Below are positions 6,001 to 24,599 of a stretch of DNA of 32,000 nt, in pieces. The first letter of the stretch is position 1; each line of letters begins with the position of its first letter. The position numbers were made by a program, and so were the translations under genes. Source of the stretch: Candidatus Nitrospira nitrosa (GTDB lineage: Bacteria; Nitrospirota; Nitrospiria; Nitrospirales; Nitrospiraceae). The notes under the pieces are model-generated. The model was not told the DNA's origin, searched no databases, and saw only the letters and a list, made by a program, of their open reading frames with translations. The stretch is from positions 85,483 to 117,482 of the forward strand of contig NZ_CZQA01000011.1 of NCBI RefSeq assembly GCF_001458735.1. Direction: 5' to 3'.

Positions 6001-9000
6001 GATCCGTTTCCGACTCTTCGTGTCGGGCTCACGCCAGGAACCGGCGAAAGTGCTCCGGCGGGGCCGGAGAGTCATTATTCTGGAATCGGCAACGAGCTGA
6101 ACAACGTTCTGACCGGTAACCGTGGCGACAATGTGCTCGAGGGTTTTGGCGGAAACGATGTGCTCAATGGGCGAGGTGGTAACGATACGCTTAAAGGTGG
6201 TGAAGGTACCGATACGTATCTGTTTGGAGTCGGCGACGGACAGGATCGGATTGAAGACCGCAGCGTGAGCGGCGAGACCGATAGCGTGCAACTGGTGCCG
6301 GGGCTCGCGCCAAATCAAATCGGGGTGGTGCAGTCGGGAAGCGATCTGGTCCTGCGGATGCCTGGTTCCATGGATTCGTTGACATTCGCCGATTTCTTCG
6401 GCCCTCCTTCCGCCGCACAAAAAAATGTGCGATTCCAAGATGGCACGGTGTGGGATGAAGCGATTTTGCGCGCGCTGGGCGCCGACCCTGGACAAGGCCT
6501 CACCATCGTTGACACGGATAGCGGCGACAATGTGCTGTTAGGCAGCAGCGGACATGATGTACTTACGGGCGGCAGCGGCAATGACACCCTGACCGGGGGT
6601 GGGGGCAACGATATCCTCAAGGACTTGGCCGGGAATAATGTGTATGACGGGGGGAGCGGTGATGATTCCCTCATCGGCGGCGCCGGCAATGACGGCTTCA
6701 TGTTCGGCCGCGGGTATGGCCGCGATATGGTCCTTGTGGATCAACTCTTTAACGATGCCTTCACCACAGATACCGATCATGTTCAGATGGTGGGACTGAA
6801 CCCCAGTGATGTCATCATACAAAGGCAATCCTCCGCTTCAGGTCAGCTGAGCTTTGTGATCACCGTGCTCGATACGGCGGATCAGCTTACGGTGCGGTTT
6901 CGAAACGGTATCTACGGGTTTGCTCCCGCACCGGTCACGCTCAATTTTGCCGATGGCACGAGTCAAGAACTCGGTCTGTTTACCGATTTCCCCGCTGCGC
7001 CGTCCCGGACAGTGTTCAGTTCCGTGGACTATGCGCTGGGGGGAGATGAAGACAATCTCGTCCTTGTGGATAGTCATAGCCCGGTGGTTCCGGACTCCCG
7101 CGTAGGAATCGGCAACGGTTTGGATAATGTCATGCTCGGGAACACTGCGGATAACGTGATCGAAGGCGGTGCCGGGCATGATGTATTACACGGGGGGTTC
7201 GCGCGATCGGTGGAAGGTGTTTTCTTCGTCGATACCGGCAGCGACATTCTGATTGGTGGAGAAGGGAATGATACGCTCATTCCCTTCGGTGATTCGGCAT
7301 TTGCCTTCGACGTTGGAGTCGGTACTGACCCCAATCCATTCAACACTCCGGACGATGTTCTCATTGGTGGGCCTGGGAACGATACCTACTATATTCGGCA
7401 TGCCGGTCAGACTCTTGTCGAACTGCCGGAAGAGGGGGTGGACGCAGTGCACAGCACGGTCAGCTATTCCCTGCCTGACAACGTCGAGAATCTCGTCCTC
7501 ACTTCCACATGGAGTGAGGACGTCGGGTTTATCTCGCTGACCGGGACCGGCAATGAGTTGGACAACGTGCTGGTCGGTGGTGCCGGCGCAGATCTGCTCA
7601 GCGGTGGTGCCGGTCATGACACGCTCTATGGAGGACGAGATGCGACGTTTGACGACGGCACTCCGATAGGGCTTCCTTCCAGCGATACTTTGGTCGGAGG
7701 TGCCGGCAACGATGCCTATCTCTTCAATCTCGGTGACGGCATCGATACGGTCGAGGATGTCGCAGCTGTCGGCGAAGGGAACCGGATTCAATTTGGAACG
7801 GGGATTACCCCAAACGATCTCACCTTCACGCGGGATGATGCGGCCGGGATGCTGACCATCGAGGTGGGCGCAAGCGGGACGGACCAGCTCGTGCTCACGA
7901 ACTTCGACCCAACGGGAGTGAATGGCTCGTTGGTCATTGAGAACGTGGCCTTTACGGATGGGAGCACGGTTAGTCTCTCATCCTTACTCGGTGGCCCAAT
8001 CAACCATGCGCCGTCGGTGGTGACGTCGCTCGAGGATCAATGGATTACGCAAGGCAGTCTCTTCAGCTTCGTCGTCCCCACGAACACGTTTGTGGATCAG
8101 GATGCCTTGTATGGGGACAGCGTAACCTACGGTGCGACACAAGCCGATGGCACCACCCTGCCCACCTGGCTCACGTTCGATCCAAGTACCCGCACGTTCA
8201 GTGGGACACCACAAGGTCCGGATATCGGCACCGTCGATGTGCAAGTCACTGCGACCGACATAGGGGCGCTGAGTGCCGGCGATGTGTTTACTTTGACCAT
8301 CCTGCCGATCACCGGTACGGAGGGGAATGACACCCTTATCGGGACCGGCGGTGATGATGTCATTCAAGGCTTGGCGGGAGATGATGTTCTGCAGGGACTC
8401 GCAGGCAATGATCTGCTCGATGGTGGACCGGGGATCGACTCGATGACCGGCGGCCTGGGCCACGATACGTATGTCGTGGATGTGGCGGGCGAGGTGGTCA
8501 CGGAAGCCCTGAACCAAGGAACGGATACGGTCCACAGCAGTGTGACGTATACCCTGGGTGCGAACGTTGAAAATCTGGTTTTGACCGGCACGGGTGCGAT
8601 CAACGGAACCGGCAACAGCCTCAATAATCGTCTTACCGGTAATAGCGCCAATAACCAGCTCAATGGAGGGGCAGGTGCTGATACCATGACCGGCGGACCG
8701 GGCAATGACATGTATGTCGTCGCGAACATCGGTGATGTCGTGATCGAGCTGGCCAACGAAGGCATTGATCTGGTGCAGAGCGCCATCACCTATACGCTCG
8801 GTGCCGACGTTGAGCACCTCACCTTGACCGGCTCAATCGCCATCGACGGAACCGGGAACATCCTAGACAACATCATCAAGGGGAACAGTGCAGCCAACAT
8901 CCTCAGTGGTAGTGCGGGAAACGACACCTATGTGGTGGCCACTGGTGATACGGTGGTCGAGCTGGCGAATGAGGGGATCGACACGGTGCAAACGGCCGTG

Positions 9001-10905
9001 ACTTGGACTCTGGGTGCCGATGTGGAGAACCTCACGCTGACCGGCACTGGAGCGATCAGTGGGGGCGGGAATTCTCTAGACAACATTCTGACAGGGAACC
9101 GCGGCGCCAACACATTGGATGGTGGAGGAGGAGCTGACAGCTTGATCGGCGGTCTCGGCAACGACACGTACGTCGTGGACAATGCGGGTGATGTGGTCAT
9201 AGAGAACGTCAACGAGGGTGTGGACACGGTGCGGAGCGCAATGACGTACGTTCTCGGGACGGATGTAGAAAACCTTATGCTGATAGGTTCCACCGCCGTC
9301 AATGGGACCGGCAATAGTCTCAATAACATGCTCACGGGCAACGGCGTCGCGAACACCCTGACGGGGTTGGACGGAAACGATACGCTCGACGGCGGGGGCG
9401 GCACCGATATCCTAACGGGTGGCCTCGGTCACGACACCTATGTGGTTGATGATGCCGGCGATATCGTGACGGAGAACCTCAATGAGGGGACTGATCTGGT
9501 GCGGAGCGGGGTGAGCTATGCCCTCGCGGCCAATGTGGAACACCTCACGTTGACTGGCATCAGCGCTATCGACGGCATCGGCAATACTCTCAACAACAAG
9601 CTCACAGGCAACAGTGCGGCGAATCAACTGGCAGGTGGGGCGGGCAATGATACCTATGTCGTGAGCACGGGAGATACCGTGATCGAATATGCGGGTGAAG
9701 GCATGGACACCGTGCGGAGTAATGTGAGCTGGATGTTGGATTCAAATCTCGAACATCTCACGCTCACGGGTACGGCAGCGATTAATGGAGAAGGCAACAG
9801 TTTAGCCAATACCTTGCGTAGCAATGATGCGGCAAACGTGCTCATTGGAAGGGCGGGCAACGATACCTATGTCGTGAGTACAGGGGATACCGTGATCGAA
9901 TATGCGGGTGAAGGCATGGACACCGTGCGGAGTAATGTGAGCTGGATGTTGGATTCAAATCTCGAACATCTCACGCTCACGGGTACGGCAGCGATTAATG
10001 GAGAAGGCAACAGTTTAGCCAATACCTTGCGTAGCAATGATGCGGCAAACGTGCTCATTGGAAGGGCGGGCAACGATACCTATGTCGTGAGTACAGGGGA
10101 TACCGTGATCGAATATGCGGGTGAAGGCATGGACACCGTGCGGAGTAATGTGAGCTGGATGTTGGATTCAAATCTCGAACATCTCACGCTCACGGGTACG
10201 GCAGCGATTAATGGAGAAGGCAACAGTTTAGCCAATACCTTGCGTGGCAATGATGCGGCAAACGTGCTCATTGGAGGGGCGGGCAACGATACCTATGTCG
10301 TGAGTACAGGAGATACCGTGATCGAATATGCGGGTGAAGGCACGGATACCGTGCGGAGTAATGTGAGCTGGATGTTGGATTCAAATCTCGAACATCTCAC
10401 GCTCACAGGCACGGCGGCGATCGATGCGACAGGGAATATGCTGAACAACAGACTGACGGGCAACAATGCGGAAAATCAACTCGTCGGTGGGGTGGGCAAC
10501 GACACGTTGCGCGGTGGGTTGGGCAACGATACCTATCTCATCACTCGTGGTGAGGGCCTGGATGTCATCGTCGAGAATGACAGCACGGCCGGCAACAGTG
10601 ATCGACTTCAGTACGGGGCGGCGATCAATCCGCTCGATCTGGTCATCAGTCGTCAGGTCGACGATCTGCGGCTGGCGGTGCATGGTACCGCCGATCAGGT
10701 TACCATTAAGGACTGGTATGTCGGCACCGATCATCAGGTCGAGACGATGCAGGCCGGGAATGGCTCGCTGTTGCTCAGTACGCAAGTGGATCAACTGATT
10801 CACGCCATGGCTGCGTTCAATCAGCAGACTGGTCTGACCTGGGACCAAGCGATTGATCAGCGTCCCCAGGATGTGCACGCTATCCTTGCCGCAAACTGGC
10901 AGTAG
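1..10905 (+). CDS. Giant RTX-repeat (hemolysin-type Ca2+-binding) protein, more than 3630 aa. The 5' end lies outside the window. Predicted T1SS substrate, adhesin-like.
   Basis: The frame is open from nt 1 (no stop upstream of the GTG at 31) to the TAG at 10903-10905. It carries dozens of GGxGxDxL/I nonapeptide repeats; the first block is [46 protein letters not shown] at nt ~1255-1400. About eight ~90-aa modules of the form GNDxYxFxxGDGxDxIxD...FADGT are present (hemolysin-type Ca-binding-related modules). One cadherin-like/putative-Ig segment lies at nt ~7999-8310 (..[35 protein letters not shown]..). There are two arrays of a 71-aa unit. The last module ends in a non-repeat C-terminus, as expected for a T1SS signal. 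T1SS genes lie 1.4 kb downstream. Confidence 0.9.
   Translation, partial: [3634 protein letters not shown]
5386..5811. repeat. Diverged in-frame repeats with a 213-bp (71-codon) period inside the RTX gene (first array)
   Basis: The motif ggRaatgaactggacaaYRtgctgaccggcaatgccggagtcaatgt recurs at 5386 and 5599. A more diverged copy (gggaacgagctggacaac) starts at 5812. The spacing is exactly 213 bp each time. Confidence 0.7.
9639..10405. repeat. Near-identical tandem repeat, 213-bp unit, about 3.6 copies, in frame inside the RTX gene (second array)
   Basis: Units start at 9639, 9852, 10065 and 10278. By direct comparison, copy 1 differs from copy 2 at 4 positions and copy 2 from copy 3 at 2 positions. 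Copy 4 diverges after ~10405. Each copy encodes [71 protein letters not shown]. Older diverged copies of the same 71-aa unit extend back to ~8400. Confidence 0.93.
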
Positions 10906-10969
10906 CGGATAGAGGGGAGTGAACGGTAAACAGTAAGAAGCACGTCGCGAGGGGGGGGGCTGTTAGGTG

Positions 10970-10990
10970 CAGGGTCCCCCTGTCTATTTT
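10970..10990 (+). terminator. Weak candidate intrinsic terminator after the RTX gene
   Basis: caggg-tcc-ccctg forms a 5-bp stem with a 3-nt loop (10970-10982), followed by tctatttt. The stem is short, so this is only a candidate. Confidence 0.3.
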
Positions 10991-11072
10991 GTGATCATGC
11001 TTGTGTGTTTCAGGTAGAAAGGCCCTTGCAGAAAAGATCAACCGTTTTCTGAAAGCGAAGGAGGGCGATGTC

Positions 11073-11603
11073 TTACGGTGACGCGGCAAGGGCTTCGCGA
11101 GCGCTGGTCTGAATGGTTTCAGTTGAGAGGCGGTGATGGCGAGCCACGAGGAATGCATCGTCGAGATCGATCTCTGTTCCTCGACGAAGCTTGGTAATCA
11201 CGAAATCGATAGGAGACAAGACACGAATACGAAGGCGAGGTTCGTGAATGACATCGATGGCACGATCCCTATATCCCGGTGGCATGGCGACCACCGACCA
11301 ACCGGAGAAATTTTGGGTCAGATCAGCGGGGATCTTTCGGGCTGTCAGGTAATCCCTCAGCGGCATGAGAGGGCTTTGTAGCTCGGCGTCGACATCGAGC
11401 GTCACCCGATTGGACACGCCGTAGGCGTGGAGGGCCAACCCGCCGACGAGGAGTAGGTCGACCGGGGTATTAGTGTCGGCGACGTACTGAGTGAGAAGTT
11501 TAACGAGATACTCAGCGGTGAGCGTAGGCAAAGTAGACCGCCTCGGCGAATGTTCGATACTCGCGGAAGTCAATCGGACCGGGGTCGATCGGAAGAGGGG
11601 CAC
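11073..11603 (-). CDS. Hypothetical protein with a minimal nucleotidyltransferase-fold signature (DUF6036-like or AbiEii-like; tentative)
   Basis: The ORF contains LLLVGGLALHAYGVSNRVTLDVDAEL, matching the hG[GS]..(x)..DhDh pattern of the pol-beta NTase superfamily. A later segment, IDFVITKLRRGTEIDLDDA, is also present. The start is uncertain (GTG 11603 or an internal TTG). The ORF overlaps the 3' end of the upstream ORF. Confidence 0.5.
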   Translation of the reverse strand: MPLFRSTPVRLTSASIEHSPRRSTLPTLTAEYLVKLLTQYVADTNTPVDLLLVGGLALHAYGVSNRVTLDVDAELQSPLMPLRDYLTARKIPADLTQNFSGWSVVAMPPGYRDRAIDVIHEPRLRIRVLSPIDFVITKLRRGTEIDLDDAFLVARHHRLSTETIQTSAREALAASP

Positions 11604-11850
11604 GGTCGAAGAGATAACTGAGCAGGCGACGGTAGTGCGTATACCATCGGCAGGCTGTTCTGTGCGCGTCTTGTACCACCGGATCGGATTGCCAGGGGAT
11701 CAGATCCAATTGGTCGTTCAATAAGATTTCAAGCCAGAGCACCCGCCGTCCTCTGGCGGTTTGAGTGGCTTCCTGAATCGACGTTGTGCCAAGGTAGGCC
11801 GGGAGCAGTTTGAGCGTCGGTGTGGGCGGTTGTGTAGGCCTGTCTGACAT
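11512..11850 (-). CDS. Hypothetical protein (112 aa), upstream partner of the NTase-like ORF
   Basis: ATG-initiated ORF that overlaps the next gene on the same strand. I recognise no motif and see no clear SD, so support is weak. Confidence 0.4.
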   Translation of the reverse strand: MSDRPTQPPTPTLKLLPAYLGTTSIQEATQTARGRRVLWLEILLNDQLDLIPWQSDPVVQDAHRTACRWYTHYRRLLSYLFDRAPLPIDPGPIDFREYRTFAEAVYFAYAHR

Positions 11851-12300
11851 GGTGTTAGTGTAACATAGCCGTAAGCAGATCTATATCGGAACCGTCCGAA
11901 TGCTTCCAGATTGACCGTGGAGGGTTCATTGCCCGGTCGATGGGCAGCTTCCATAAACACTGGCGTGTGCAGCCACACCGCTGGACGATGCGTATGGAAG
12001 GCCATCAAGCTGTCACGATTCCCCAACTATATAGGAGTGTCGCCATATAAAAGAAGCCGGGAGCCTATGTCGAATATTGGCGCACCCGGCCTTTGCCTGT
12101 CCCAGCGGAGGGCAAATCCATCGCCTATGTAGGCCTGTGGCCCAGTCTGAAAGTACAAGTGGGTGGCTCTTCCGTTGTGGCTGCGCCTGAGTGCTGATGA
12201 GATTACCGAAAAGCAAGGCTCAGATAAATCACCTACTGTGCATCTGTCCCAATCCTCGAAAAGGTTTGGCCATCAGGCAGCCCTATCCTAAGATGGCTGG

Positions 12301-14481
12301 ATGTCAGCCAATGCCGCGCGGGTTCCCTCGCATCCACCGGAGTGCGAACGTTCTGACACCTCTTCAGTTGAGACAGATACCGGACTGATCTGCCTCCTCA
12401 TTCTTGCGCGTTTTCATGATCTGCCTGCCGATGGTTCTCAGCTGCGGCATCAGTTTGCCCAGTCTGGACAGACCCTATCCGATACCGATCTCCTCCGTGC
12501 CGCCAAACATCTGGGTATGAAAGCCGGGCTGGTGAAGATCTCATGGAGCAAACTGTCCGGAACCCCGTTGCCGGCGATAGCCAAGCGAACGGACGGGCGA
12601 TATCTTGTCTTGGCCAAAATCGAAGGAGACAAGGTGCTGGTCCAAGATCCCGTTGAAGGACGCCCCCTTGTGTTTGGTCGCCAAGACTTCGAGGGGATGT
12701 GGGCCGGTGAATTGTTGCTCTTTACGAAGCGGGCTCATGTCCGCCTCCAAGACCTGAAGTTTGACTTCACCTGGTTCATCCCAGAAATCGTCAAGTACCG
12801 CAAGTTTTTTGGAGAGGTCTTGGTTGCCTCGTTCTTTCTGCAGCTCTTTGCCCTGCTGACACCGCTCTTTACACAGGTGGTCATCGATAAGGTGCTTGTG
12901 CATAAGGGATTTACCACGCTCCATGTGCTGGCCATCGGGATGGTCACGCTGGCGGTCTTTGAGGCGCTCCTGGGAGGGCTTCGGACCTATCTGTTTGCCC
13001 ATACCACGAATCGGATTGATGTCAGCCTCGGGGCTCAGCTTTTCCGCCATGTCCTGGCGCTGCCTCTTTCCTATTTTGAAGCAAGGCGCATCGGCGATAC
13101 GGTGGCACGGGTCAGGGAGTTGGAGCAGATCCGCCAGTTCTTGACCAGCCATTCCGTCACCGTGGTGCTCGATGTGCTCTTTACTGTCGTGTTTCTGACC
13201 GTGATGTGGTTCTACAGTTCGACCCTCACGCTCGTGGTCATGGCGTCGTTGCCGATCTATGCATTGTTGTCCGTGGCGATTACGCCGGCGATCAGGGCTC
13301 GACTACATGAGAAGTTCAACCGAGGCGCCGAGAATCAAGCGTTCTTGGTGGAAGCCGTCAGCGGGATTCAAACCGTGAAGGCTCTGGCGGTGGAGCCGCC
13401 CCTGTTGCGGAAATGGGAGGAACAACTGGCCGGCTATGTGCAGGCGAGCTTTCGTGCTACGAGCATGATGACGATTGCTGGTCAGTCCGCAACCGCCGTG
13501 CAGAAGGTCACCACGGTAGCTGTGCTGTGGCTTGGAGCCTATCGTGTGATCGGCGGCGATCTCAGTATCGGTCAATTGATTGCCTTCAACATGCTGTCAG
13601 CCCAGGTCACCGGGCCAATTTTGCGGCTGGTGAATCTCTGGCAAGAGTTGCAGCAGGTCGGTATTTCGGTCGAGCGTTTAGGAGATGTGCTCAATACGTC
13701 GCCGGAGCCGTCCTACAATCCGAACCGGACGACCTTGCTCCATGTCGTCGGTCGCGTGCAATTCGACGACGTGACGTTTCGGTATCGACCTGATGGTCCA
13801 GAGGTCGTCCGCAAACTCTCTTGTCGTATTGAGCCAGGCCAGATGATCGGAATTGTCGGTCGATCGGGCTCGGGGAAAAGCACGATCGCGAAATTACTGC
13901 AGCGGCTCTATGTGCCGGAGCGAGGACGGATCCTAGTCGACGGCGTCGATCTGGCCCAGGTCGATCCGGCTTGGCTGCGACGACAGGTGGGTGTCGTGCT
14001 CCAAGAGAACTTCCTCTTCAACGGGTCAGTGCGGAGCAATATCGCGTTGACCGATCCCGGTTTGTCGATGGAGCAGGTGATTCAGGCGGCGAAGTTGGCC
14101 GGCGCCCATGAATTTATCCTAGAGCTATCGGACGGCTATGACACGGTAATCGGTGAGCATGGGTGTACCTTGTCCGGTGGCCAGCGGCAACGGGTCGCCA
14201 TCGCTCGGGCCTTGGTTGCGAACCCTCGGATTCTGATATTTGACGAAGCCACTAGCGCACTGGACTCTGAATCTGAGGCGGTGATCCAGCGGAATATGGC
14301 AGAGATTGCCAAGGGGCGGACGGTCCTGGTGATCGCCCATCGGCTGAGCACGGTGCGGCCAGCTCATTGCATCTATGTCGTCGAACGGGGAGAAATTGTC
14401 GAGCAGGGGTCGCATGATGACCTACTCAGCATTGGCGGAGCGTATGCGCGGTTGCATGCTCACCAGCTCGGCAAGGGATAA
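12301..14481 (+). CDS. T1SS ABC transporter, HlyB family, with an N-terminal C39-like domain (inactive peptidase)
   Basis: 726 aa. The N-terminal segment DTGLICLLILARFHD..LLRAAKHLGMKA is colinear with the HlyB C39-like domain. Thr sits where C39 peptidases carry the catalytic Cys (DCG). Six TM helices follow. Walker A is GRSGSGKST, the signature motif is LSGGQRQR, and Walker B is ILIFDEATSALD. Confidence 0.92.
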   Translation: MSANAARVPSHPPECERSDTSSVETDTGLICLLILARFHDLPADGSQLRHQFAQSGQTLSDTDLLRAAKHLGMKAGLVKISWSKLSGTPLPAIAKRTDGRYLVLAKIEGDKVLVQDPVEGRPLVFGRQDFEGMWAGELLLFTKRAHVRLQDLKFDFTWFIPEIVKYRKFFGEVLVASFFLQLFALLTPLFTQVVIDKVLVHKGFTTLHVLAIGMVTLAVFEALLGGLRTYLFAHTTNRIDVSLGAQLFRHVLALPLSYFEARRIGDTVARVRELEQIRQFLTSHSVTVVLDVLFTVVFLTVMWFYSSTLTLVVMASLPIYALLSVAITPAIRARLHEKFNRGAENQAFLVEAVSGIQTVKALAVEPPLLRKWEEQLAGYVQASFRATSMMTIAGQSATAVQKVTTVAVLWLGAYRVIGGDLSIGQLIAFNMLSAQVTGPILRLVNLWQELQQVGISVERLGDVLNTSPEPSYNPNRTTLLHVVGRVQFDDVTFRYRPDGPEVVRKLSCRIEPGQMIGIVGRSGSGKSTIAKLLQRLYVPERGRILVDGVDLAQVDPAWLRRQVGVVLQENFLFNGSVRSNIALTDPGLSMEQVIQAAKLAGAHEFILELSDGYDTVIGEHGCTLSGGQRQRVAIARALVANPRILIFDEATSALDSESEAVIQRNMAEIAKGRTVLVIAHRLSTVRPAHCIYVVERGEIVEQGSHDDLLSIGGAYARLHAHQLGKG

Positions 14482-14699
14482 TCGACAAAGACCGTCCGCA
14501 GCGTTCTCACGTCGCTCGAGGCTCAACATACGGGACAGAGTACGATTCGCCTCTTCGCTCGCTGCGGCCCTGCTGGACGGTCTTTTGAACAGTCCGGGAG
14601 GCATTCCGATATCGTCGGCCACCAGACGTGTCCCGATTCATTGCTCAGGTGACCAGGGTTCGTCCACACACTGATCGTCAACGGAAACCGAGAGAGACT

Positions 14700-16087
14700 A
14701 TGGCATTTGGCGGGCTGTCACGACATTGGACGGTCTGGAAGGCGGCTTGGCAGGCTGAATCACGTCAACCGTCCGGCACGGTTGCTCCTCGCGGGCGTGC
14801 CTCAGAATTTCTGCCGGCGTTGTTGGAAATCCAGCAGGCTCCTCCCTCGCCGATCGGTCGTGCGCTTATCTGGACGATTGTCGCAGCGTTCACTGCGTCC
14901 TTGCTGTGGGCCTCCTTCGGCTGGATCGACATTGTTGCGACTGCGCAGGGCAAGATCATTCCCAGCGGCTACTCGAAGGTCATCCAACCCTATGAAACCG
15001 GCGTGATTGCCGCCATTCATGTGCAGGATGGACAAGCGGTGCAGCAGGGGGATGTGCTGATCGAGCTCGATGCGACGCTCAATCGAGCCGATCGGGATCG
15101 AGTCGCGAACGAGCAGCGAAAGTTGATGCGGCTCGGTTACGGGCCCTCATCAAGGGCGAGGCTGCCTTTGATGCTCCCGCCGATGCCGATCAGGCATACG
15201 TCGGGCTACAACAACAGTTGTTGCGTGATCAACTCGCTGAGTATCAGGCCAAGGTGGCCGCGACGCAGCATCTTGTGGATCAACGCCAAGCGGCGCTCGA
15301 ACAAACCAACGAGAACATTCTCCGTTTAGAAGCGACGGTGCCGATGGAGGTTGAGCGAGCGGACGCCTACAAGAAATTGCTGGAACATGAAGCCGTGACC
15401 AAGATGGACTTTCTCCAGGCAGAAGGTCAGCGGATCGACAAGGCACAGGAACTAGCCGGACAAAAGAAAAAGCTACAGCAAGATCGTGCGGCGCTGGCGG
15501 AGGCTGAGAAGCATTATCGAGCCACGGTGTCGGAATTCCAACAGAACAAGCAGGCCGAGTTGTCGGTGCTGGAAACCAAGGTGGCCTCGCTCGCACAGGA
15601 GGTGACGAAGGCCGGCCAAAAGGCGGGTCTGCAGCGGCTGATGTCCCCTATTGCCGGTGTGGTGCAGCAGCTTGCGGTCCATACCGTCGGTGGTGTCGTG
15701 ACGCCGGCTCAACAGTTGCTTATCGTCGTGCCACGTGACCATCCGCTGGAAGTCGAAGCGCAGGTAGAAAATAAGGACGTCGGGTTTGTGAAGGAAGGGC
15801 AACCGGTCGAGATCAAGGTCGAAACGTTTCAGTTTACCTTATACGGGACGATTCCAGGCCATGTCTTGACGGTTTCCAACGATGCGGCTCCGATTGAAAA
15901 GGTTGGGCTTGTCTACCCCACCAGGGTCAGCATGGATCGGTCGGTGATCCACGTCGAAGGCAAGCAGGTGAACCTTTCTCCGGGTATGGCGGTTACGGTT
16001 GAGATGAAGACCGGTCAGCGACGGATCATCGAGTATCTGCTGAGCCCCTTGCTCAGGTCGGCACAAGAGAGTCTGAGAGAGCGGTAA
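14700..16087 (+). pseudogene. HlyD-family T1SS membrane fusion protein interrupted by a 1-nt frameshift (or a sequencing error)
   Basis: Two overlapping ORFs, 14628-15329 and 15218-16087, lie in different frames and together are colinear with HlyD. The elements are MAFGGLSRHWTVWK.. (ATG 14700), a TM helix LIWTIVAAFTASLLWASFGWI, GDVLIELD, a long coiled coil, and the C-terminus MAVTVEMKTGQRRIIEYLLSPL. The HlyD-like reading continues in the second frame from ~15119 (KVDAARLRALIKGEAAFDAPADADQAYVGLQQQLLRDQ). This places the break at the AAA run 15119-15121 (cgAAAgttgat). Confidence 0.85.
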
Positions 16088-16127
16088 CAGGAGGCACAAC
16101 CCGTGAGGTGTCGGAGGTAAAGAAGAA

Positions 16128-17522
16128 GTGAAACGTGAGAGGTCAAAGGTGAAGAGTGAGAGAGGGGCAGAAGAGAAACTGTGCCTCCGTGATCGATGTA
16201 GAGTGCTCGGTGTTGCCATCGTTGCTGTTGTAGCCACGACGAGTGCGGTTTGGGCGGGGGAGGCGGGGAATTCCGATCGGTTGATCCCGTCGCCGATGCT
16301 CTCGTTGACGTTGCGCGAAGCCTTGTCGGCCGCTGCCGACAGCAATCCCGATGTGCTGCTGTACAAGGAACGGATTCAAGAAGCCAAAGGCCAGGTGCAG
16401 ACACAGTTGGGAGCCATGTTACCCAATCTTTCCGCCGATGTTCGACAGAGCCGGCGGACACAATTTCTTGGGACTATCGGTCTCTCACCCGTGCGTACAG
16501 ATCCCTTCAGTATTTTCGATGCCCGGATCAGTGCGACGCAAAATCTCTTCAGCCTCAGCTTGATTCAGCGGTGGCGGGCTTCGCGGCAGTCACTACAGAT
16601 GACGGAACAGGAGGCGGAAGCCAAGAAGCTTGACACAATGGCCACTGTGGCATTGGCTTATATGGAAGGGCTGAAAGCGATGGCCCTGATCAAGGCGCAT
16701 GAATTGAATCAGCAGATCATGGAGGAGTTACTTGGAACGATTCGACAGCGGCAGCGTGGGGGCCTGGCCACAGGGCTCGATATTGCACGACTGGAAGCCC
16801 AACTAGCGGCAGAGCGGCAGCAGAGTTCCTCGGCTGGGTATGAGCTCGACCATGCCAAATTCAGCCTGATCAATCTGCTCGCGTTACCGACGCACAGTGC
16901 CGTGGCGCTGACCGATCAGTGGCGCATGGACGTGCCGGAGATTCCACGGTCGCAGAAGGCTGTCGAGGATGCGCTCGGTCAACGCCCCGAGGTCCAAGCG
17001 CAGTCTACCCGCGTACGAGCGGCTGAATTGATGTATGCCTCCATGACGGGGGAACGGGTGCCGTCACTCGTGGCACAGGGTGACTATGGGCTGGTCGGCA
17101 ATCGCTGGAGTAATACGCTTGATACTTACAGTATGGCGCTCATTCTTCAGATTCCCATCTTCGATGGCGCACAACGTGAAGGGCGCATTGTTCAAGCGCG
17201 AAGCCAGTGGCAACAAGAGGCTCTTCGGATGAGGTCTGTGCTCAACCAAGTCACCATGGAAGTTCAAGATGCCCTGGCATCACTGACTGCGGCGAAAGAA
17301 CAGGTGGGGATCGCCCAGGCTGGTCTCCGGATGGCGACGAAGGAGCTTGATCTGGCCCGGGAACGCTATGCCGTCATCACTTCCGCCAGCCACTTTGAAC
17401 TGACGAATGGACTCTCGGCTGTCGCCCGTGCGCGAGAAAACCTCGTCAACGCGCTCTTTCAGCTGAATGCCGCCCGCATCAATCTCGCCCGTTCGACCGG
17501 GAGTCTGGAGACACTGAACTAG
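16128..17522 (+). CDS. TolC-family outer membrane efflux protein (T1SS outer membrane component)
   Basis: 464 aa. GGAGG at 16113-16117 lies 10 nt before the GTG at 16128. The signal-like segment is VLGVAIVAVVATTSAVWA. Duplicated TolC-type repeats are present (LSLTLREALSAAADSNPDV.. and ..LDLARERYAVITSASHFELTNGLSAVARARENLVNALFQLNAARINLARSTG). The gene directly follows the ABC and MFP genes. An alternative start is GTG 16203. Confidence 0.88.
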   Translation: MKRERSKVKSERGAEEKLCLRDRCRVLGVAIVAVVATTSAVWAGEAGNSDRLIPSPMLSLTLREALSAAADSNPDVLLYKERIQEAKGQVQTQLGAMLPNLSADVRQSRRTQFLGTIGLSPVRTDPFSIFDARISATQNLFSLSLIQRWRASRQSLQMTEQEAEAKKLDTMATVALAYMEGLKAMALIKAHELNQQIMEELLGTIRQRQRGGLATGLDIARLEAQLAAERQQSSSAGYELDHAKFSLINLLALPTHSAVALTDQWRMDVPEIPRSQKAVEDALGQRPEVQAQSTRVRAAELMYASMTGERVPSLVAQGDYGLVGNRWSNTLDTYSMALILQIPIFDGAQREGRIVQARSQWQQEALRMRSVLNQVTMEVQDALASLTAAKEQVGIAQAGLRMATKELDLARERYAVITSASHFELTNGLSAVARARENLVNALFQLNAARINLARSTGSLETLN

Positions 17523-17689: not shown

Positions 17690-18775
17690 ATGCCTGCATC
17701 CCGAGTTCGAACCTGGGTTCTTGCAGCTGGTATTGCCGCACTGCTGCTCCATTTTCCTACAGAAGTGGCACAGTATCTCCTGGCCCTTGTTCCGTATCAG
17801 CGCTCGACGCCTTTCGAGCTGGAGACCCTCACAGAGGTCGCACATGAAAATATCACCACGTTCTCACCTCGAACGTCCGATGAGTCAGTGTGGAAGGCCG
17901 TCATCACCCGGGTGTTTGGCATGGCGTTGATCGGACTGCCGGTTTGGTATTTCCTGCAGCGTCGAGAGCGCGAAGAAGAGCTACAGCAGCTTGATAAAGG
18001 CTGGGCCGCGCGCTTGCACGCACGCAGCGAAGAGTTAATGGCCGTCAATCACGCACTCGTCAGCGAGGTCTCGAAACGAATTGATACCGAACAGTCCCTG
18101 GAGGCCAACCGACGGGATCTGCGCATGCTTGCTTCTCAATTGCTTCGCCTTCAGGAAGAGGAACGACGGCGAATCTCACGTGATCTGCACGACGATATCA
18201 ATCAACGACTAGCGCTCTTGTCGATCGACATTGAAATGTTAGAACGGCAGCTCTCACACGCGGCCGTCGGGACTGTCCGAACGGTGCGCAGCATTCAGGA
18301 TCGTATTGTCGAACTGTCCGAAAGCGTTCGGCGTCTCGCCTATCAGTTTCATCCGTCCGTCCTTGATGATCTGGGCTTGTCTATTGCGCTCCGACGTCTT
18401 ATTGATGATTTTCAGACTCGTACCGGTCTCGATGCTCGGTTCATCAGCAAAGAGATCCCGCAGCACCTGGCGCAGGACGTGGTCACATGCTTGTACCGTG
18501 TGACACAGGAAGGGTTGGCAAACATCGCGCGCCATGCGAGGGCACAAACCGTGCTGGTCGAACTGATGCGAGTGCGAGACGGGTTGCAGCTTCTGATACG
18601 GGATGACGGAGTGGGGTTTGACGTGAATCATGACGGCGGTCAGCGAGGTAGTCTCGGGCTGTTGAGTATGAAGGAACGAGTTGCGTTAGTTGCTGGGACG
18701 TTCACGATAGACTCGACACCGGGTACAGGAACACGTATCCGTGTCTGGGTTCCGTTTACACAGGAGTCTGTATGA
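17690..18775 (+). CDS. Sensor histidine kinase, HisKA_3 type (NarX/DegS-like), with two TM helices and a short external loop
   Basis: The H-box is EEERRRISRDLHDDINQRL. The HATPase segment reads ..LYRVTQEGLANIARHA.., IRDDGVGFD, GSLGLLSMKERVALVAGTF. Two N-terminal hydrophobic helices are present. The stop overlaps the next gene's start (ATGA at 18772). Confidence 0.88.
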   Translation: MPASRVRTWVLAAGIAALLLHFPTEVAQYLLALVPYQRSTPFELETLTEVAHENITTFSPRTSDESVWKAVITRVFGMALIGLPVWYFLQRREREEELQQLDKGWAARLHARSEELMAVNHALVSEVSKRIDTEQSLEANRRDLRMLASQLLRLQEEERRRISRDLHDDINQRLALLSIDIEMLERQLSHAAVGTVRTVRSIQDRIVELSESVRRLAYQFHPSVLDDLGLSIALRRLIDDFQTRTGLDARFISKEIPQHLAQDVVTCLYRVTQEGLANIARHARAQTVLVELMRVRDGLQLLIRDDGVGFDVNHDGGQRGSLGLLSMKERVALVAGTFTIDSTPGTGTRIRVWVPFTQESV

Positions 18776-19419
18776 GTAAGCCTCGCGTACTCTTGGCGGA
18801 TGACCACGCCCTGGTGCTGGAAGGGTTCAAAAAGCTGCTGGAAGAGCATTGTCAGGTCGTCGGGTCCGTAGAAGATGGTCGTGCGTTGCTCGATGCAGCG
18901 GAACGCTTGCAACCGGACATTGTGGTCTTGGATATTTCGATGCCTAAACTGAACGGTCTCGATGCGGCGCGTCGGTTGCGAAAGATGGTGCCTCGACCAC
19001 GACTGATTTTTGTGACGGTGCATGCGGATCAGGACTATGTCACTCAAGCTTTCAAGGCCGGCGCTTCAGCCTACCTGCTTAAACGGTCGGCGGGATCCGA
19101 GCTGGTACAGGCCATTGAAGCTGTGATGCACGACAATTATTACGTCACGTCGTTGATTGCCAAGGATCTGGTCCACGCTGCGATCGCGGACACGGAGTCG
19201 GACACCGGCGTGCAGGATCGCTTGCCGATGCGACAACGAGAGATTTTACAGCTTGTGGCTGAGGGACTGACACTCAAGGAAATCGCCTCAACGCTAGGGC
19301 TCTCTCCCAAGACGGTCGAGTATCACAAAGCCAAGCTCATGGAGCAGCTTGGCCTTCATACTACCGCTGAACTGACAAAATACGCACTCGCTCACGGGCT
19401 TACACCTTCCTCCGAGTAA
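18772..19419 (+). CDS. Response regulator, NarL/FixJ family (REC domain plus LuxR-type HTH)
   Basis: The REC domain reads VLLADDHALVLEGF...DIVVLDISMPKLNG...AGASAYLLK. The C-terminal segment is LPMRQREILQLVAEGLTLKEIASTLGLSPKTVEYHKAKLMEQLG. The gene is translationally coupled to the kinase. Confidence 0.9.
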   Translation: MSKPRVLLADDHALVLEGFKKLLEEHCQVVGSVEDGRALLDAAERLQPDIVVLDISMPKLNGLDAARRLRKMVPRPRLIFVTVHADQDYVTQAFKAGASAYLLKRSAGSELVQAIEAVMHDNYYVTSLIAKDLVHAAIADTESDTGVQDRLPMRQREILQLVAEGLTLKEIASTLGLSPKTVEYHKAKLMEQLGLHTTAELTKYALAHGLTPSSE

Positions 19420-19689
19420 CAGTCTTCGTTTCCTCATTTCTTGGTGCATCCATTCCAAGGGAATTTCCGTCCCGACCCTAGGCATGTCCCGTATGGCACA
19501 GACCATGAGGTTTTGCTAAGTATGAGACAAGCTGCGGCGGGTCCTATGAAAAGGAGGTTTGTGGTGGCCTCCGGAGGAGACCCGAGGTTGTCGCCATGTT
19601 GATACAACAACTCGGCTCTTCTTCAATCGATGGGTCACCTGAAACGTATCGACCTACGCATGCGAATAATCTAACAGGGAGGTATCGTC

Positions 19690-20508
19690 ATGGCAGCATC
19701 AAGTGAGCGAGGGTATGACGTCTCGCAGTGGTACGATTCGAAGCCGGTGAAGATCGGCTGGTTTGCGATGTTGGCGATCGGGGTGTTTTGGGTCCTGTAC
19801 CAGCGAACCTTCGGGTATTCGCATGGGTTGGATTCCATGACCCCGGAGTTCGAGTCGGTGTGGATGGGGCTGTGGCGGTTTAACATTTTGGCCAACGCCA
19901 TCTTCTTTGCCGTCTCGATCGGGTGGATCTGGGTGACGCGGGATCGGAACCTGACGAACCTGGACCCGAAGCTGGAGCTGAAGCGGTACTTTTACTGGAT
20001 GGGCTGGTTGGTGTGCTACATCTGGGGCGTGTACTACGCGGGGAGCTACACGTTGGAGCAGGATGCGGCGTGGCATCAAGTGATCATCCGGGACACGAGC
20101 TTTACGGCGAGCCACATAGTGGCGTTCTACGGGACGTTCCCGCTGTACATTACGTGCGGGGTGTCGAGCTACCTGTATGCACAGACGCGGTTGCCGCTGT
20201 ATAGCCAGGCGACGTCGTTCCCGTTGGTGGCGGCGGTGGTGGGGCCGATGTTCATTCTACCGAACGTGGGGCTCAATGAGTGGGGCCATGCGTTCTGGTT
20301 TGTGGATGAGCTGTTTGCGGCGCCGTTGCACTGGGGCTTTGTGACGTTGGGCTGGTGCGGGTTGTTCGGCGCGGCCGGTGGAGTGGCGGCGCAGATCGTG
20401 AGCCGGATGTCGAATCTGGCGGACGTGATCTGGAACAACGCCCCGAAGAGCATCTTGGATCCGTTCCCGGCCCAGGTGCAGAGCGCCAGCGCCAAGAGCG
20501 TGTACTAA
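19690..20508 (+). CDS. amoC: Ammonia monooxygenase subunit C (CuMMO C subunit)
   Basis: 272 aa. GGGAGG lies 7 nt upstream of the ATG. Diagnostic segments are [26 protein letters not shown] and [27 protein letters not shown]. The length is typical for AmoC/PmoC, and amoA follows directly. Confidence 0.93.
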
Positions 20509-20605
20509 GCAGATCGGTCGGTCTCGGAGGCGAGCCTGGGTGGTCGCGCGAATAAGCAAGGCTCAGGCCGCTTCTGATCGGCTGAAATGACGGAGGATGT
20601 CAGTT

Positions 20606-21448
20606 ATGTTTAGAACCGATGAAATTATCAAGGCCTCGAAATTGCCGCCGGAAGGGGTGGCAATGTCTCGGCACATTGATCACATCTATTTTATCCCAAT
20701 TTTGTTCATCACCATCGTCGGGACCTTTCACATGCACACCGCGTTGCTGTGCGGGGACTGGGATTTTTGGCTGGACTGGAAGGATCGGCAATGGTGGCCG
20801 ATCGTCACCCCGATTACGACCATTACGTTTTGTGCGGCCCTGCAGTATTACAATTGGGTGAACTATCGTCAGCCGTTCGGGGCGACGATTACGATTCTGG
20901 CGCTTGGGTTCGGAAAGTGGATTGCCGTCTATACGTCGTGGTGGTGGTGGTCGAATTATCCGCCGAACTTCGTCATGCCGGCGACACTGCTGCCGAGCGC
21001 ATTGGTCTTGGACATCACGCTCTTGCTCACCAGGAACTGGACCTTGACGGCGGTGATCGGCGCATGGATGTACGCGATTCTGTTTTATCCCAGCAACTGG
21101 CCGATCTTTGGCTATAGCCACACCCCGATCGTGGTCGATGGCTCGTTGCTCTCATGGGCCGACTACATGGGCTTCATGTATGTCCGGACCGGGACGCCGG
21201 AGTACATCCGCATGATCGAGGTCGGGTCGCTGCGCACCTTCGGTGGGCACAGCACCATGATCTCGGCCTTCTTCTCGGCGTTTGCCTCGTCGCTTGTGTA
21301 CGTACTGTGGTGGCAGTTCGGGAAATTCTTCTGCACCTCGTACTTCTACTTCACGGATGACAGGCAGAGAACGGTCAAGGTGTACGACGTATTCGCCTAC
21401 GCCACGTTAGCACACGGCGATAAGGCAAAAGTTGGGGGGAAAGCATGA
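20606..21448 (+). CDS. amoA: Ammonia monooxygenase subunit A (clade-A comammox-like)
   Basis: Key segments are [17 protein letters not shown].., [55 protein letters not shown] prefer ATG 20606 because GGAGG (20592-20596) is 9 nt upstream. The longest ORF starts at ATG 20597, which abuts the SD. The sequence tacaattgggtgaacta (20849-20865) and the complement of agatcatggtgctgtg (21248-21263) match, from memory, the clade-A comammox amoA primer sites and lie 415 bp apart. Confidence 0.93.
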
Positions 21449-21517
21449 ACGCCACATCTCGAACACATGATTCGGAGAGTCATGTAGAGTCGGCGTTCTA
21501 AGTAGGGGCTGGTAAGA

Positions 21518-21551
21518 ACCGGCGGGCTCGATTATCCGAGCTCGCCGGCTT
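21518..21551 (+). terminator. Hairpin terminator candidate downstream of amoA
   Basis: ccggcgggctcg (21518-21529), loop attatc, cgagctcgccgg (21536-21547). This is a 12-bp stem with one G-U pair, followed by cttt. The U-tract is short, so the hairpin is strong but the terminator call is moderate. Confidence 0.6.
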
Positions 21552-21684
21552 TGGTGGTCTGAGTATGACGGTGAATGTCAGCAATAGTGAAACGGACATG
21601 AACGGTCCACACAGCGTCTTATCGTGTGGACACGCATCACGGTGATCGGCCCTCTATCGTGGCGGATCCTCTGGGAGGCTAGAA

Positions 21685-23478
21685 GTGAAAAGCAAGACGC
21701 AAACCATCGTATTTTGGATGATCGTGGGCCTGTCGATATTCTTTCTTCTCAACCTCTGGAATACACCTACGCGTGCGGTCGTAGAGGAAGAGATTATGTT
21801 TAGCGACTTCATGGCAAAACTCGACCAGGGTGCTGTCGAGAAGGTCACCATGCAGGGACATCGTCTCACCGGCGTGTTGAAAGATAACTCCCAGGTGCGA
21901 ACCTACATGGCGGACTATCCTGATCTCGTCCAAATGCTGCGCGAGAAGCATGTTCAGATCGAGGTCAGGCCGCAGGGTGAAAGTGCTTGGTATGTGACGG
22001 TGCTCATGACCTGGGGGCCGTTCGTGCTTTTTCTCGGGGTGTGGCTGTTCATTATGCGCCGAATGCAGAATGGGAACGCGGCCTTATCTCTCGTGAAGAA
22101 TAGGGCCCGCATGCTGACGGATGAGCGGAAAAAAGTCACGTTTTCCGATGTGGCGGGCATTGACGAAGTGAAAGCGGATGTGCAGGAAACGGTCGAATTT
22201 CTGAAGGACCCCAGGAAGTTCCAAAAACTCGGCGGGCGCATTCCCAAAGGTGTGTTGGTCGTGGGCCCGCCTGGGACCGGGAAGACACTTTTGGCGAAGG
22301 CGATTGCCGGCGAAGCGGGCGTACCGTTCTTCAGCATTAGCGGTTCAGACTTTGTGGAAATGTTTGTGGGAGTCGGAGCCTCCCGTGTTCGCAGTATGTT
22401 CGAAGACGCAAAAAAGCATGCTCCTTGTATTATCTTCATTGATGAAATCGACGCAGTCGGACGATCACGAGGAGGGGGGATTGGGGGCGGCAACGATGAA
22501 CGCGAGCAAACACTCAATCAGTTGCTGGTTGAGATGGACGGATTTGATACGACAGAGGGCGTGATTTTGGTGGCGGCTACCAATCGGCCAGATGTCCTTG
22601 ACCCTGCTCTGCTGCGGCCAGGTCGATTCGACAGGCAAGTCGTGGTGAATCATCCCGATCTGAGGGGCCGGACGGAGATCCTGAAGGTTCATGCGAAAAA
22701 AGTTCCGGTGGCAGCAGACGTGGACCTGCAAACAATCGCTCGAGGAACCCCGGGATTCTCAGGCGCCGATTTGGAAAACCTCGTCAATGAGGCGGCGCTG
22801 TGGGCAGCTCGTCAGAGCAAAGACGAGGTGGGGTCCGCGGATTTTGAGAAGGCGAAGGATAAGATTCTGATGGGTGCCGAGCGCAAGAGCATGATATTGA
22901 CGGACGAGGAGAAGCGTGTCACCGCGTATCATGAGGCTGGTCATGCCTTAGTAGCGCAACTCCTGCCTGGTACAGATCCCGTTCACAAAGTATCGATTAT
23001 TCCGAGAGGTCGCGCACTGGGGGTGACCTTACAGTTGCCGACCAATGACCGCCACAATTACTCCAAAGAGTTCTTATACAACACGCTCGCCATTCTTCTT
23101 GGGGGCAGGGTGGCCGAAGAGCTGGTGTTCAACCAGGTGACAACCGGTGCTGGCAACGATTTGGAACGGGCTACAGCCCTTGCGCGGCAAATGGTATGCG
23201 AATGGGGTATGAGTGAAACGCTGGGACCTCTCACGTTCGGGCAGAAAGAGGGAACAACATTTCTGGGACGTTCGTTTTCGACGAATCGTGACTGCAGTGA
23301 TCAAATGGCAGCGGAGATTGACCTGGAAATCAAGCGTCTCATCACAGAAAACTATGCAAGGGTCAGGCAGGTGTTGACGGAACGGATGACGACCTTGGTT
23401 GCGCTGGCAGAAGCACTTCTGGAAAAGGAGGTGTTGGATGCAAGGGAGATTCAAGAGGTTCTTCTGCGGTCGTCTTAA
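21685..23478 (+). CDS. ftsH: ATP-dependent zinc metalloprotease FtsH
   Basis: 597 aa. GTG start with GGGAGG 6 nt upstream. Two N-terminal TM helices. Walker A is GPPGTGKT, Walker B is IIFIDEIDA, the SRH segment is [19 protein letters not shown], and the zinc site is HEAGHAL. Confidence 0.95.
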
Positions 23479-23693: not shown

Positions 23694-24599
23694 TATAGCC
23701 AAGCCCTCAATTACTGATGGACATAGGCAGTGGACTTTAGCGATCATGCGGGCATGAGATGTTCACCAGATTTGCGCCAGCGGGTCGTGGATTTTGTCCG
23801 AAGTGGGGGAAGCAAGGCCGACGCGGCTCGGCGGTTCAAAGTCGGTGAGGCGAGCGTGTACCGCTGGCTCAAGCCTGGTGGCCTAACGTACCAGCGTCCT
23901 GGTCCTCGTCGGGCCCACAAATTGGATTGGGAGCAGTTACGCCGTCATGTGGAGGACCATCCCGATCGGATACAAGCAGAACGGGCGCGGCATTTCCACG
24001 TCTCCCGACATTGCATCTGGAACGCGCTGCGCAAACTGGCCGTCACGCATAAAAAAAAGGATGGGCTACCAAGAACGTGACCCTCTCCAACGACGACGGT
24101 TCCTCCGTCTTCGTGAACGGTTTCTGCGACGCGGCAAACAGCCCGTCTACATCGATGAATGTGGGTTTGCCCCGTCGACGGTGCGGCGCTATGGATACGC
24201 GCCGAAAGGCCAGCGTGTAGATGGCCTGGTGTCCGGGCATCGACGGCCACGCACCTCGCTCATTGCCGCTCGTATGGATGGGCAACTGGTAGAGCCCTGT
24301 CTGTTCAAAGGCACCTGCGATACCGTGGTCTTCAACGCGTGGCTGCAGACGAGATTGTGCCCGCGCCTGACCGCCCACCATCTCGTCATCATGGACAATG
24401 CCACCTTTCATACCTCGCCCGAAACAGCGCAGCTCATCAAGGCGACTGGGGCGACCTTGCTATTCCTTGCACCCTATTCCCCCGACCTCAATCCCATCGA
24501 GCGGGACTTCGCCGTGCTGAAGAAACGCCGGGAATATCAGGAGCAAGCCACGCTCGACGACATCGTCAAGGCCTATCAATGATTGTGAACTTAGCTATA
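23694..24599 (+). mobile_element. IS630-family insertion sequence (~0.9 kb) with imperfect terminal inverted repeats and TA at both ends
   Basis: The left end ctatagccaagccctcaattactgatggac (23693-) and the reverse complement of the right end ctatagctaagttcacaatcattgataggc (-24600) match at 21 of 30 positions by hand alignment. Both junctions read cTATAg, consistent with a TA target duplication, but the exact boundary is ambiguous by 2-3 nt. Confidence 0.7.
23754..24582 (+). CDS. IS630-family DDE transposase encoded in two overlapping frames joined at an A8 run
   Basis: Frame A (23730/23754-24080) encodes MRCSPDLRQRVVDFVRSGGSKADAARRFKVGEASVYRWL, an HTH. Frame B (to 24582) encodes VYIDECGF.., ..LVIMDNATFH.., ..DLNPIERDF, a DDE triad with the second D and the E separated by 34 residues. 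The frames meet at aaaaaaaa (24051-24058). A +1 shift, or one fewer A, fuses them as ..VTHKKK/RMGYQERD... Confidence 0.85.

Follow-up and report, generated by a model that had tools for sequence, protein, structure and literature searches.

A second, amoB-less amoC-amoA locus beside ftsH in Candidatus Nitrospira nitrosa and other clade A comammox Nitrospira

A stretch of 32,000 nucleotides (nt) from Candidatus Nitrospira nitrosa (contig NZ_CZQA01000011.1, positions 85,483 to 117,482; hereafter the window, to which all coordinates refer unless another locus is named) carries intact amoC and amoA genes for two subunits of ammonia monooxygenase (AMO), followed not by amoB but by the membrane protease gene ftsH. 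We conclude, with a probability of about three in four, that this is an ancient, truncated second amo locus whose coding sequences are kept in step with the complete amoCAB operon by gene conversion, and whose products work with the AmoB of that operon under separate control. The gene order histidine kinase, response regulator, amoC, amoA, ftsH is conserved as a block which, judged by comparison of the loci described below (numbered L001, L002, and so on), is old and common to many clade A comammox (complete ammonia-oxidizing) species.

Both amo genes lie on the forward strand: amoC (19690-20508) encodes 272 amino acids (aa) and matches PF04896 with an E value of 1.5e-105 and 352 bits against a curated cut-off of 26.7, while amoA (20606-21448) encodes 280 aa and matches PF02461 with an E value of 1.6e-98 and 330 bits against a cut-off of 27.5, the profile being nearly wholly covered in each case. 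A first reading of this DNA from the letters alone (the sequence-only reading) had described the two genes as intact, co-directional, and 97 nt apart, and the Pfam matches and the sequence agree with it. The longest amoA open reading frame (ORF) begins at 20597; we place the start codon at 20606 because a GGAGGA ribosome-binding site occupies 20592-20597 and because public gene calls are of 280 aa. In tblastn the window AmoC protein and the operon-encoded AmoC of N. nitrosa-type strains (L001, L004, L008) share 99-100% identity, and the AmoA protein is 100% identical to AmoA of the amoCAB loci compared (L001, L002, L008, L013), making both equivalent to the subunits of a complete amoCAB operon from the same species group. 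At the nucleotide level the window amoA is 99.0% identical to that of L001, and the two differ by 8 synonymous changes and no nonsynonymous one. The amoC-amoA spacer (20509-20605) has diverged from the operon copy (62-85% identity, against 94-100% in the flanking coding sequence), and only its final ~30 nt, where the amoA ribosome-binding site lies, have not.

The limits of the duplicated segment are sharp. It is a 1.79-kb copy of amoCAB (19670-21454) that begins at the amoC ribosome-binding site and extends 10 nt into amoB: i) homology with those amoCAB loci that include amoC (L001, L008, L012) begins at 19670-19688 by blastn, 19670 being 20 nt ahead of the amoC start codon; ii) homology ends at 21454 in nearly all amoCAB loci compared (blastn); and iii) an identity profile drops beyond 19670-21454 to a background of about 34-49%. 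The sequence-only reading had found no AmoB- or PmoB-like ORF in the window, and a tblastn search of the whole window with a 419-aa AmoB query, taken from an N. nitrosa-like amoCAB locus, bears this out (best E value 0.75). The gene of about 419 aa (PF04744) expected after amoA in the canonical operon is absent, but its first 10 nt, ATGAACGCCA, persist at 21445-21454 as a start codon plus 7 bases, the start codon overlapping the amoA stop codon (ATGA). In other species homology stops 7-30 nt past the amoA stop, likewise within the first codons of amoB, and the truncation is therefore shared; on these alignments it is old and common to several species. The stub opens a vestigial ORF of 18 codons (21445-21501), and its translation by coupling is conceivable.

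The arrangement recurs widely. An exact-sequence look-up finds the identical 280-aa AmoA of public assemblies in two contexts, amoC-amoA-amoB (L001, L002, L008) and amoC-amoA-ftsH (L003-L007, L009, L010), and the contigs of the second kind come from different samples and are 96-99% identical to the window across the junction. The order amoC-amoA-ftsH is also found in the species-level genomes L026, L033, L045, L049, L070, L075, and L076, the same amoA-ftsH junction in Nitrospira sp. BO4 (L095), and amoB-stub-like sequence just upstream of ftsH in L099; the layout is present in at least nine further species-level genomes, and three closed genomes have it (OZ245008.1, CP060499.1, CP060501.1). 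Five genomes carry both loci (operon/ftsH-linked pairs L024/L026, L034/L033, L047/L076, L048/L049, and L012/L075), which on the closed chromosome OZ245008.1 are about 415 kb apart. That the same AmoA occurs in both contexts, and that related genomes carry both loci, upholds the earlier suggestion of a partial second amo locus relying on AmoB encoded elsewhere.

The core of this observation is not new. Ca. N. nitrosa has been reported, exceptionally among comammox genomes, to have a duplicated amoA (PMC6311188, PMC5596200, PMC6365651, citing van Kessel et al. 2015), and the duplicate known since 2015 is the same locus as the window copy; the FtsH encoded in the window is 100% identical to the protein listed under Ca. 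N. nitrosa in NCBI and UniRef. The novelty that might be claimed for the arrangement is weakened by this prior publication of a second amoA for the genome, although linkage to ftsH and conservation across species were not found in the literature searched, where no paper joined comammox, amoA, and ftsH and none had amoC and ftsH as neighbors. Nor are the limits of the duplicate, its missing amoB, its ftsH and two-component neighbors, or its presence in other species described in the papers examined, and the further species-level genomes found here stand against published accounts that treat the duplicated amoA as an exception among comammox. Our additions are modest: conservation across species, exact limits, gene conversion, an origin for one orphan amoC, and the two-component and ftsH linkage.

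Comparison of copies within genomes argues for gene conversion. The comparison draws on sister strains and other species, the window itself being set against its closest strain, L001 (99.0%). In the pairs L033/L034, L076/L047, and L049/L048 the two amoA copies are 99.8-99.9% identical at the nucleotide level with 0 nonsynonymous differences, and amoC is 97-100% identical in two of these three pairs and 80-99% identical in L049/L048; the amoC-amoA spacer, by comparison, is 51-79% identical in L033/L034 and L076/L047 and about 90% identical in L049/L048, and identity outside the block falls to about 30-45%. The two AmoC N-termini differ in some species, L033 versus L034 being one case. Paralogs within a genome are closer to each other than orthologs of different species despite their distinct flanks, the pattern of concerted evolution, and because amoA is only about 80-91% identical between species we conclude that recurrent gene conversion, shown in these related genomes at the sequence level, holds the amoC and amoA coding sequences at near-identity with those of the operon. 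The same pattern (paralogs near-identical within a genome, orthologs diverged, flanks syntenic) has been described for whole amo operons in the Nitrosomonadales (PMC6053082), and the clade A copy resembles the multi-copy amoCAB of these betaproteobacterial ammonia oxidizers in all three respects; there, however, the whole operon is duplicated (C, A, B, and often D and E), whereas the clade A copy stops 10 nt into amoB, and its conversion tracts take in amoC and amoA while usually sparing the intervening spacer. Across species the amoC-amoA spacers do not sort cleanly by copy type, and we have given up the idea of a copy-specific conserved spacer, which would have argued for copy-specific regulation.

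In some lineages the locus has been reduced further. N. nitrificans (L091), L092/L094, L096/L097, and L098 have amoC-ftsH without amoA. In L098 the amoC-amoA spacer remains, and with it the 5' end of amoA survives in decayed form for about 52 nt, its ATG now AGG; N. nitrificans retains the spacer as far as the ribosome-binding site of amoA, after which comes a leader that can be aligned to that of L049 without gaps. Moreover, amoC-only lineages are interspersed among amoC-amoA lineages in an FtsH tree. The simplest reading of these sequences is that amoC-amoA-amoB'-ftsH was ancestral and that amoA was deleted several times, a deletion that would have left an orphan amoC as the sequence remnants show for L098 and as is likely for N. 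nitrificans; the reverse order of events, with amoC-ftsH ancestral and amoA added later, was rejected on finding that amoC-only loci keep amoA 5' remnants. Loss of amoC from the ftsH-linked locus was seen in none of the genomes.

Non-operonal amoC copies are listed without explanation in earlier work (PMC6311188, PMC8115096), and in several comammox species (N. nitrificans, L092, L096, L098) the amoC beside ftsH is just such an orphan. The window amoC shares with orphan copies such as amoC3 of Nitrosomonas europaea (PMC6311188) a position outside the operon and an upstream region of its own, but AmoC3 is divergent and monocistronic, whereas the window AmoC is all but the operon protein and is followed by a full amoA; it does not belong to the AmoC3 type. 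Experiments in Nitrosomonas europaea gave AmoC3 a role in stress (Berube and Stahl 2012, as cited in PMC6311188), and the literature offers two indirect hints on amoC, namely that its transcripts rise after allylthiourea (ATU) treatment in N. inopinata and that it was the sole nitrification transcript of one hot-spring metagenome-assembled genome (MAG).

Upstream of amoC lie a sensor histidine kinase (17690-18775; HisKA_3 and HATPase_c by Pfam, and one clear transmembrane segment at residues 70-89 by hydropathy) and a NarL/LuxR-type response regulator (18772-19419; Response_reg and GerE by Pfam), both on the forward strand. In all loci with enough flanking sequence (L017, L026, L033, L045, L049, L075, L076, L092, and L109-L112), orthologs of the kinase, 56-99% identical, stand directly upstream of the regulator and the ftsH-linked amoC, and the regulator (76-98% identical) is always beside the kinase; neither gene adjoins any amoCAB operon or any locus of ammonia-oxidizing bacteria examined. 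Genes beyond the block vary among lineages on both sides, and the block itself stays intact in every lineage examined. Alignment of the regulator-amoC spacer reveals a three-part motif with fixed spacing (19460-19521, forward strand) ~40 nt past the regulator stop codon, GGAATTTCC-N17-GTCCCGTATGGCAC-N14-TGCTAAGT, with the consensus GGAAnTTCC-N17-GTnCC-N4-GGCAC-N14-TGCTAAGT, the middle part of which can also be written GTnCCnnnnGGCAC. It occurs at the same position in L017, L045, L049, L075, L076, L092, L109, and L111; when eight species-level loci were checked upstream of the ftsH-linked amoC, all three parts were present in four and two parts in three, and L033 has only a degenerate first part. 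The motif was not found upstream of operon amoC or of the other orphan amoC copies compared. By position and conservation it is a candidate promoter or operator dependent on the regulator. Other readings of the motif were set aside by eye: sigma-54, for which the GG-GC spacing is wrong, and the sigma-32 and extracytoplasmic function (ECF)-type, sigma-E-like consensus sequences.

Downstream, ftsH (21685-23478, forward strand) has, as the sequence-only reading had it, a Shine-Dalgarno sequence of its own, the GTG start codon lying behind a GGGAGG ribosome-binding site. The 597-aa product is by domains and motifs an M41 AAA+ membrane protease, with FtsH_ext, AAA, lid, and Peptidase_M41 domains (Pfam), intact Walker A (GPPGTGKT at 194), Walker B (IIFIDE at 249), second region of homology (SRH, at 299), and HEAGH (at 416) motifs, and two transmembrane segments at about 4-27 and 101-125 (hydropathy). 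N. moscoviensis (CP011801.1) has the gene order hemB-ribF-tilS-hpt-ftsH-folP-glmM, and comammox genome L109, L110 has hemB-ribF-tilS-hpt followed by kinase-regulator-amoC. The window FtsH is 78% identical to the tilS-hpt-linked FtsH of N. moscoviensis, which is 78-84% identical to all the amo-linked FtsHs, the same range as among the amo-linked FtsHs themselves. Because of these identities, and because tilS-hpt stands ahead of the block in L109 and L110, the amo-linked ftsH is most likely an ordinary housekeeping gene, the ortholog by sequence of the tilS-hpt-ftsH gene, and the two-component pair and amo fragment most likely came to lie between hpt and ftsH in a clade A ancestor. Two differences from the tilS-hpt-ftsH-folP-glmM cluster are evident: comammox clade A has the two-component pair and amo fragment between hpt and ftsH, and no amo-linked locus examined has folP-glmM after ftsH. 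An FtsH paralog dedicated to AMO is not supported, given tilS-hpt-ftsH in N. moscoviensis and tilS-hpt-kinase-regulator-amoC in the comammox genome.

Between amoA and ftsH the window has a perfect 12-bp, G+C-rich stem with a 6-nt loop, beginning 70 nt past the amoA stop codon; the hairpin noticed earlier is real, and its position is 21519-21548 (forward strand), one base on from the 21518-21547 first given. A 56-nt context folds at -32.8 kcal/mol as against -19.9 +/- 2.8 for shuffled sequence (z -4.6; 0 of 200 as good), and the pattern is unique in the window, where 0 matches are expected by chance. CTTTGG follows directly (tail CTTTGGTG), and since only three Ts come after the stem, where an intrinsic terminator would have at least 5 T in 8, a terminator scan did not call the hairpin: it has the G+C-rich stem-loop of an intrinsic terminator but not the U-tract. 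Conservation of the hairpin is limited to loci of the N. nitrosa type, namely the window, L003, and, slightly altered, L075; elsewhere the amoA-ftsH spacers are either unrelated sequences of ~235 nt or short ones of 85-88 nt without a strong stem-loop. Across all species, amoC-only loci included, the spacer can be aligned only over the last ~35 nt before the ftsH start codon, a conserved leader with the ribosome-binding site (...ATCGTGnnGGAnnnTCTGGGAGGCT...GTG; 21650-21684, forward strand). Neither the region upstream of amoC nor the amoA-ftsH spacer yielded a sigma-70 consensus in a promoter scan, and an Rfam scan of 19300-21800 matched no family. A fully efficient terminator is unlikely here because ftsH is probably a housekeeping gene and no consensus promoter lies between it and the hairpin; on sequence grounds the hairpin is most likely an intercistronic stem-loop that stabilizes the amoCA message or attenuates read-through into ftsH. 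It resembles intercistronic stem-loops and intrinsic terminators in being a strong G+C-rich stem-loop between a gene pair and a downstream gene, and differs from them in lacking a U-tract and in being confined to the N. nitrosa lineage.

How might such a locus be used? It encodes AmoC and AmoA identical to those of the operon but no AmoB, and the enzymes of this family have an A3B3C3 architecture, as in the N. inopinata structure; the products could therefore work only with operon AmoB, and would assemble with AmoB made from the complete operon elsewhere in the genome. The distinct, conserved upstream region and the two-component system would let the cell control separately how much of the two membrane-embedded subunits is supplied, and the hairpin after amoA, in the N. 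nitrosa lineage, would stabilize the amoCA message or damp transcription into ftsH.

We wish to stress the points that weigh against this account: i) what is said of function, of control by the two-component pair, and of a role for the hairpin derives from sequence rather than from expression; ii) conversion from a selected operon copy could keep this copy intact without selection acting on it, and intactness and a dN/dS of about 0 do not prove use because gene conversion alone would preserve the copy; iii) amoA has been lost from the locus in several lineages, and is dispensable at least there; iv) within-genome amoA identity is only 91.7% in L026/L024; and v) for N. nitrosa the within-genome comparison rests on sister strains and other species.

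Several of these points would also suit a neutral relic, an old by-product of illegitimate recombination that has remained intact only through gene conversion and adds nothing beyond the operon. The coding sequences are indeed homogenized with the operon copy, amoA has gone without apparent consequence from N. nitrificans, L092, L096, and L098, the spacers evolve fast with no copy-specific conservation, and L075 has frameshifts. A relic would not, however, be expected to keep the kinase-regulator-amoC-(amoA)-ftsH block intact while both flanks were rearranged in every lineage examined, to preserve at this copy only a three-part motif with fixed spacing, to retain ribosome-binding sites and start codons, or never to lose amoC in any genome seen, and we regard this explanation as unlikely, if the most serious competitor to a used second locus.

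A bolder proposal, which we hold to be doubtful and slightly less credible than the relic, makes kinase-regulator-amoC-amoA-ftsH a functional cassette for AMO maintenance, by analogy with the FtsH-dependent D1 repair cycle of photosystem II. The two-component system would sense membrane or enzyme damage; the regulator would drive synthesis of fresh AmoC and AmoA, the membrane-embedded subunits that bear the active site; and the same transcription would supply FtsH to extract damaged subunits, while the stable periplasmic AmoB was reused. If true, it would explain why extra amoC (and amoA) genes without amoB are so common in nitrifiers. The proposal is weakened by the probable housekeeping nature of ftsH, and the evidence for it is conserved adjacency alone.

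Far less probable is a recent, strain-specific rearrangement in which a mobile element deleted amoB and the downstream part of a formerly complete second operon. An insertion sequence (IS) of the IS630 family does lie 217 nt downstream of ftsH, and the 10-nt stub does indicate that the copy once reached into amoB; but species so distant that their FtsH is only 75-82% and their amoA about 80% (nt) identical to the window also have amoB cut off inside its first ~7-30 nt, with ftsH coming next, and L003, L005, and L006 show the identical amoA-ftsH junction yet lack the element. The empty site in these three contigs also marks the insertion as strain-specific and recent. The sequence-only reading had proposed that a rearrangement removed amoB, pointing to a mosaic 21.4-26.3 kb: as an ancient event this stands, on the evidence of the stub, but not as one tied to the IS630 element 2.2 kb downstream, and the supposed mosaic reduces to a single strain-specific IS630-family insertion (23696-24597), the remainder being collinear with other N. 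nitrosa-type contigs. The element has a TA target duplication and imperfect terminal inverted repeats, and its transposase is split into two ORFs (23730-24080 and 23947-24582).

An assembly join, the last of the earlier suggestions, in which a repeat-induced chimera would fuse the end of amoA to an unrelated ftsH contig, can be dismissed as the least credible explanation: multi-copy amoC and amoA repeats do cause breaks and false joins in assemblies, the majority of MAG contigs begin shortly ahead of amoA, and L093/L100 looks like a join through amoC, but seven independent metagenome assemblies from different samples span the amoA-ftsH junction, this order is found on closed chromosomes of related species too, and 9.3 kb of upstream synteny with L017 runs into amoA.

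These findings have several consequences. An amoCA pair without amoB is an ancestral feature of clade A rather than an oddity of N. nitrosa alone, visible in closed genomes and repeatedly collapsed or fragmented in short-read MAGs, and at least one comammox orphan amoC descends from it through loss of amoA. Abundances of clade A comammox from amoA-based quantitative PCR or reads usually assume one amoA per genome, and for species with this locus may overestimate cells by up to a factor of two. Copy-specific flanks allow each locus to be recognized separately in transcriptomes, and if the ftsH linkage proves functional it would offer a testable handle on the upkeep of a damage-prone enzyme in ammonia oxidizers.

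Some observations on the assemblies deserve mention. Most MAG amoA-amoB contigs (L011-L077) begin 100-400 nt before amoA, breaking in the amoC/spacer repeat, and several ftsH contigs begin 60-380 nt before ftsH; because contigs break in the amo repeat, short-read MAGs undercount amoC and amoA copies. In L093/L100 (GCA_009612975.1, WBZP01001064.1) the context found upstream of the amoCAB operon in L001 leads into an amoC that ftsH follows; the contig is probably a chimera formed across the amoC repeat, an instance of how such repeats lead assemblers astray. The hybrid-scaffolded L075 (JAMXAU010000189.1) has frameshifts in amoC, amoA, and ftsH, which are either assembly errors or signs of a decaying locus. 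Two contigs of one hot-spring MAG (L030 and L077; JANDJK01, QZM_B4_2_Bin429) each have amoA-amoB, and could represent a full second operon or a mixture of strains in the bin. A further amoC, without the upstream motif, lies ~0.9 kb downstream of ftsH in two species (L045, 13612-14430; L049, 13795-14610).

In L033 (OZ245008.1) the regulator is separated from amoC by an inserted ORF of 192 aa that bears a hydrophobic segment at its C-terminal end (7872-8450 of that locus), and just upstream of amoC is a 50-aa ORF (8865-9017) loosely like the AmoC N-terminus and first helix. The left part of the window (31-17522) is taken up by a 3624-aa ORF (31-10905) and then type I secretion genes, among them a C39-peptidase ABC transporter (12301-14481), an HlyD-family protein split into two overlapping ORFs (14628-15329 and 15218-16087), and a TolC-like outer membrane efflux protein (OEP; 16128-17522); the part containing the type I secretion system, kinase, and regulator is syntenic with L017 at 86% nucleotide identity.

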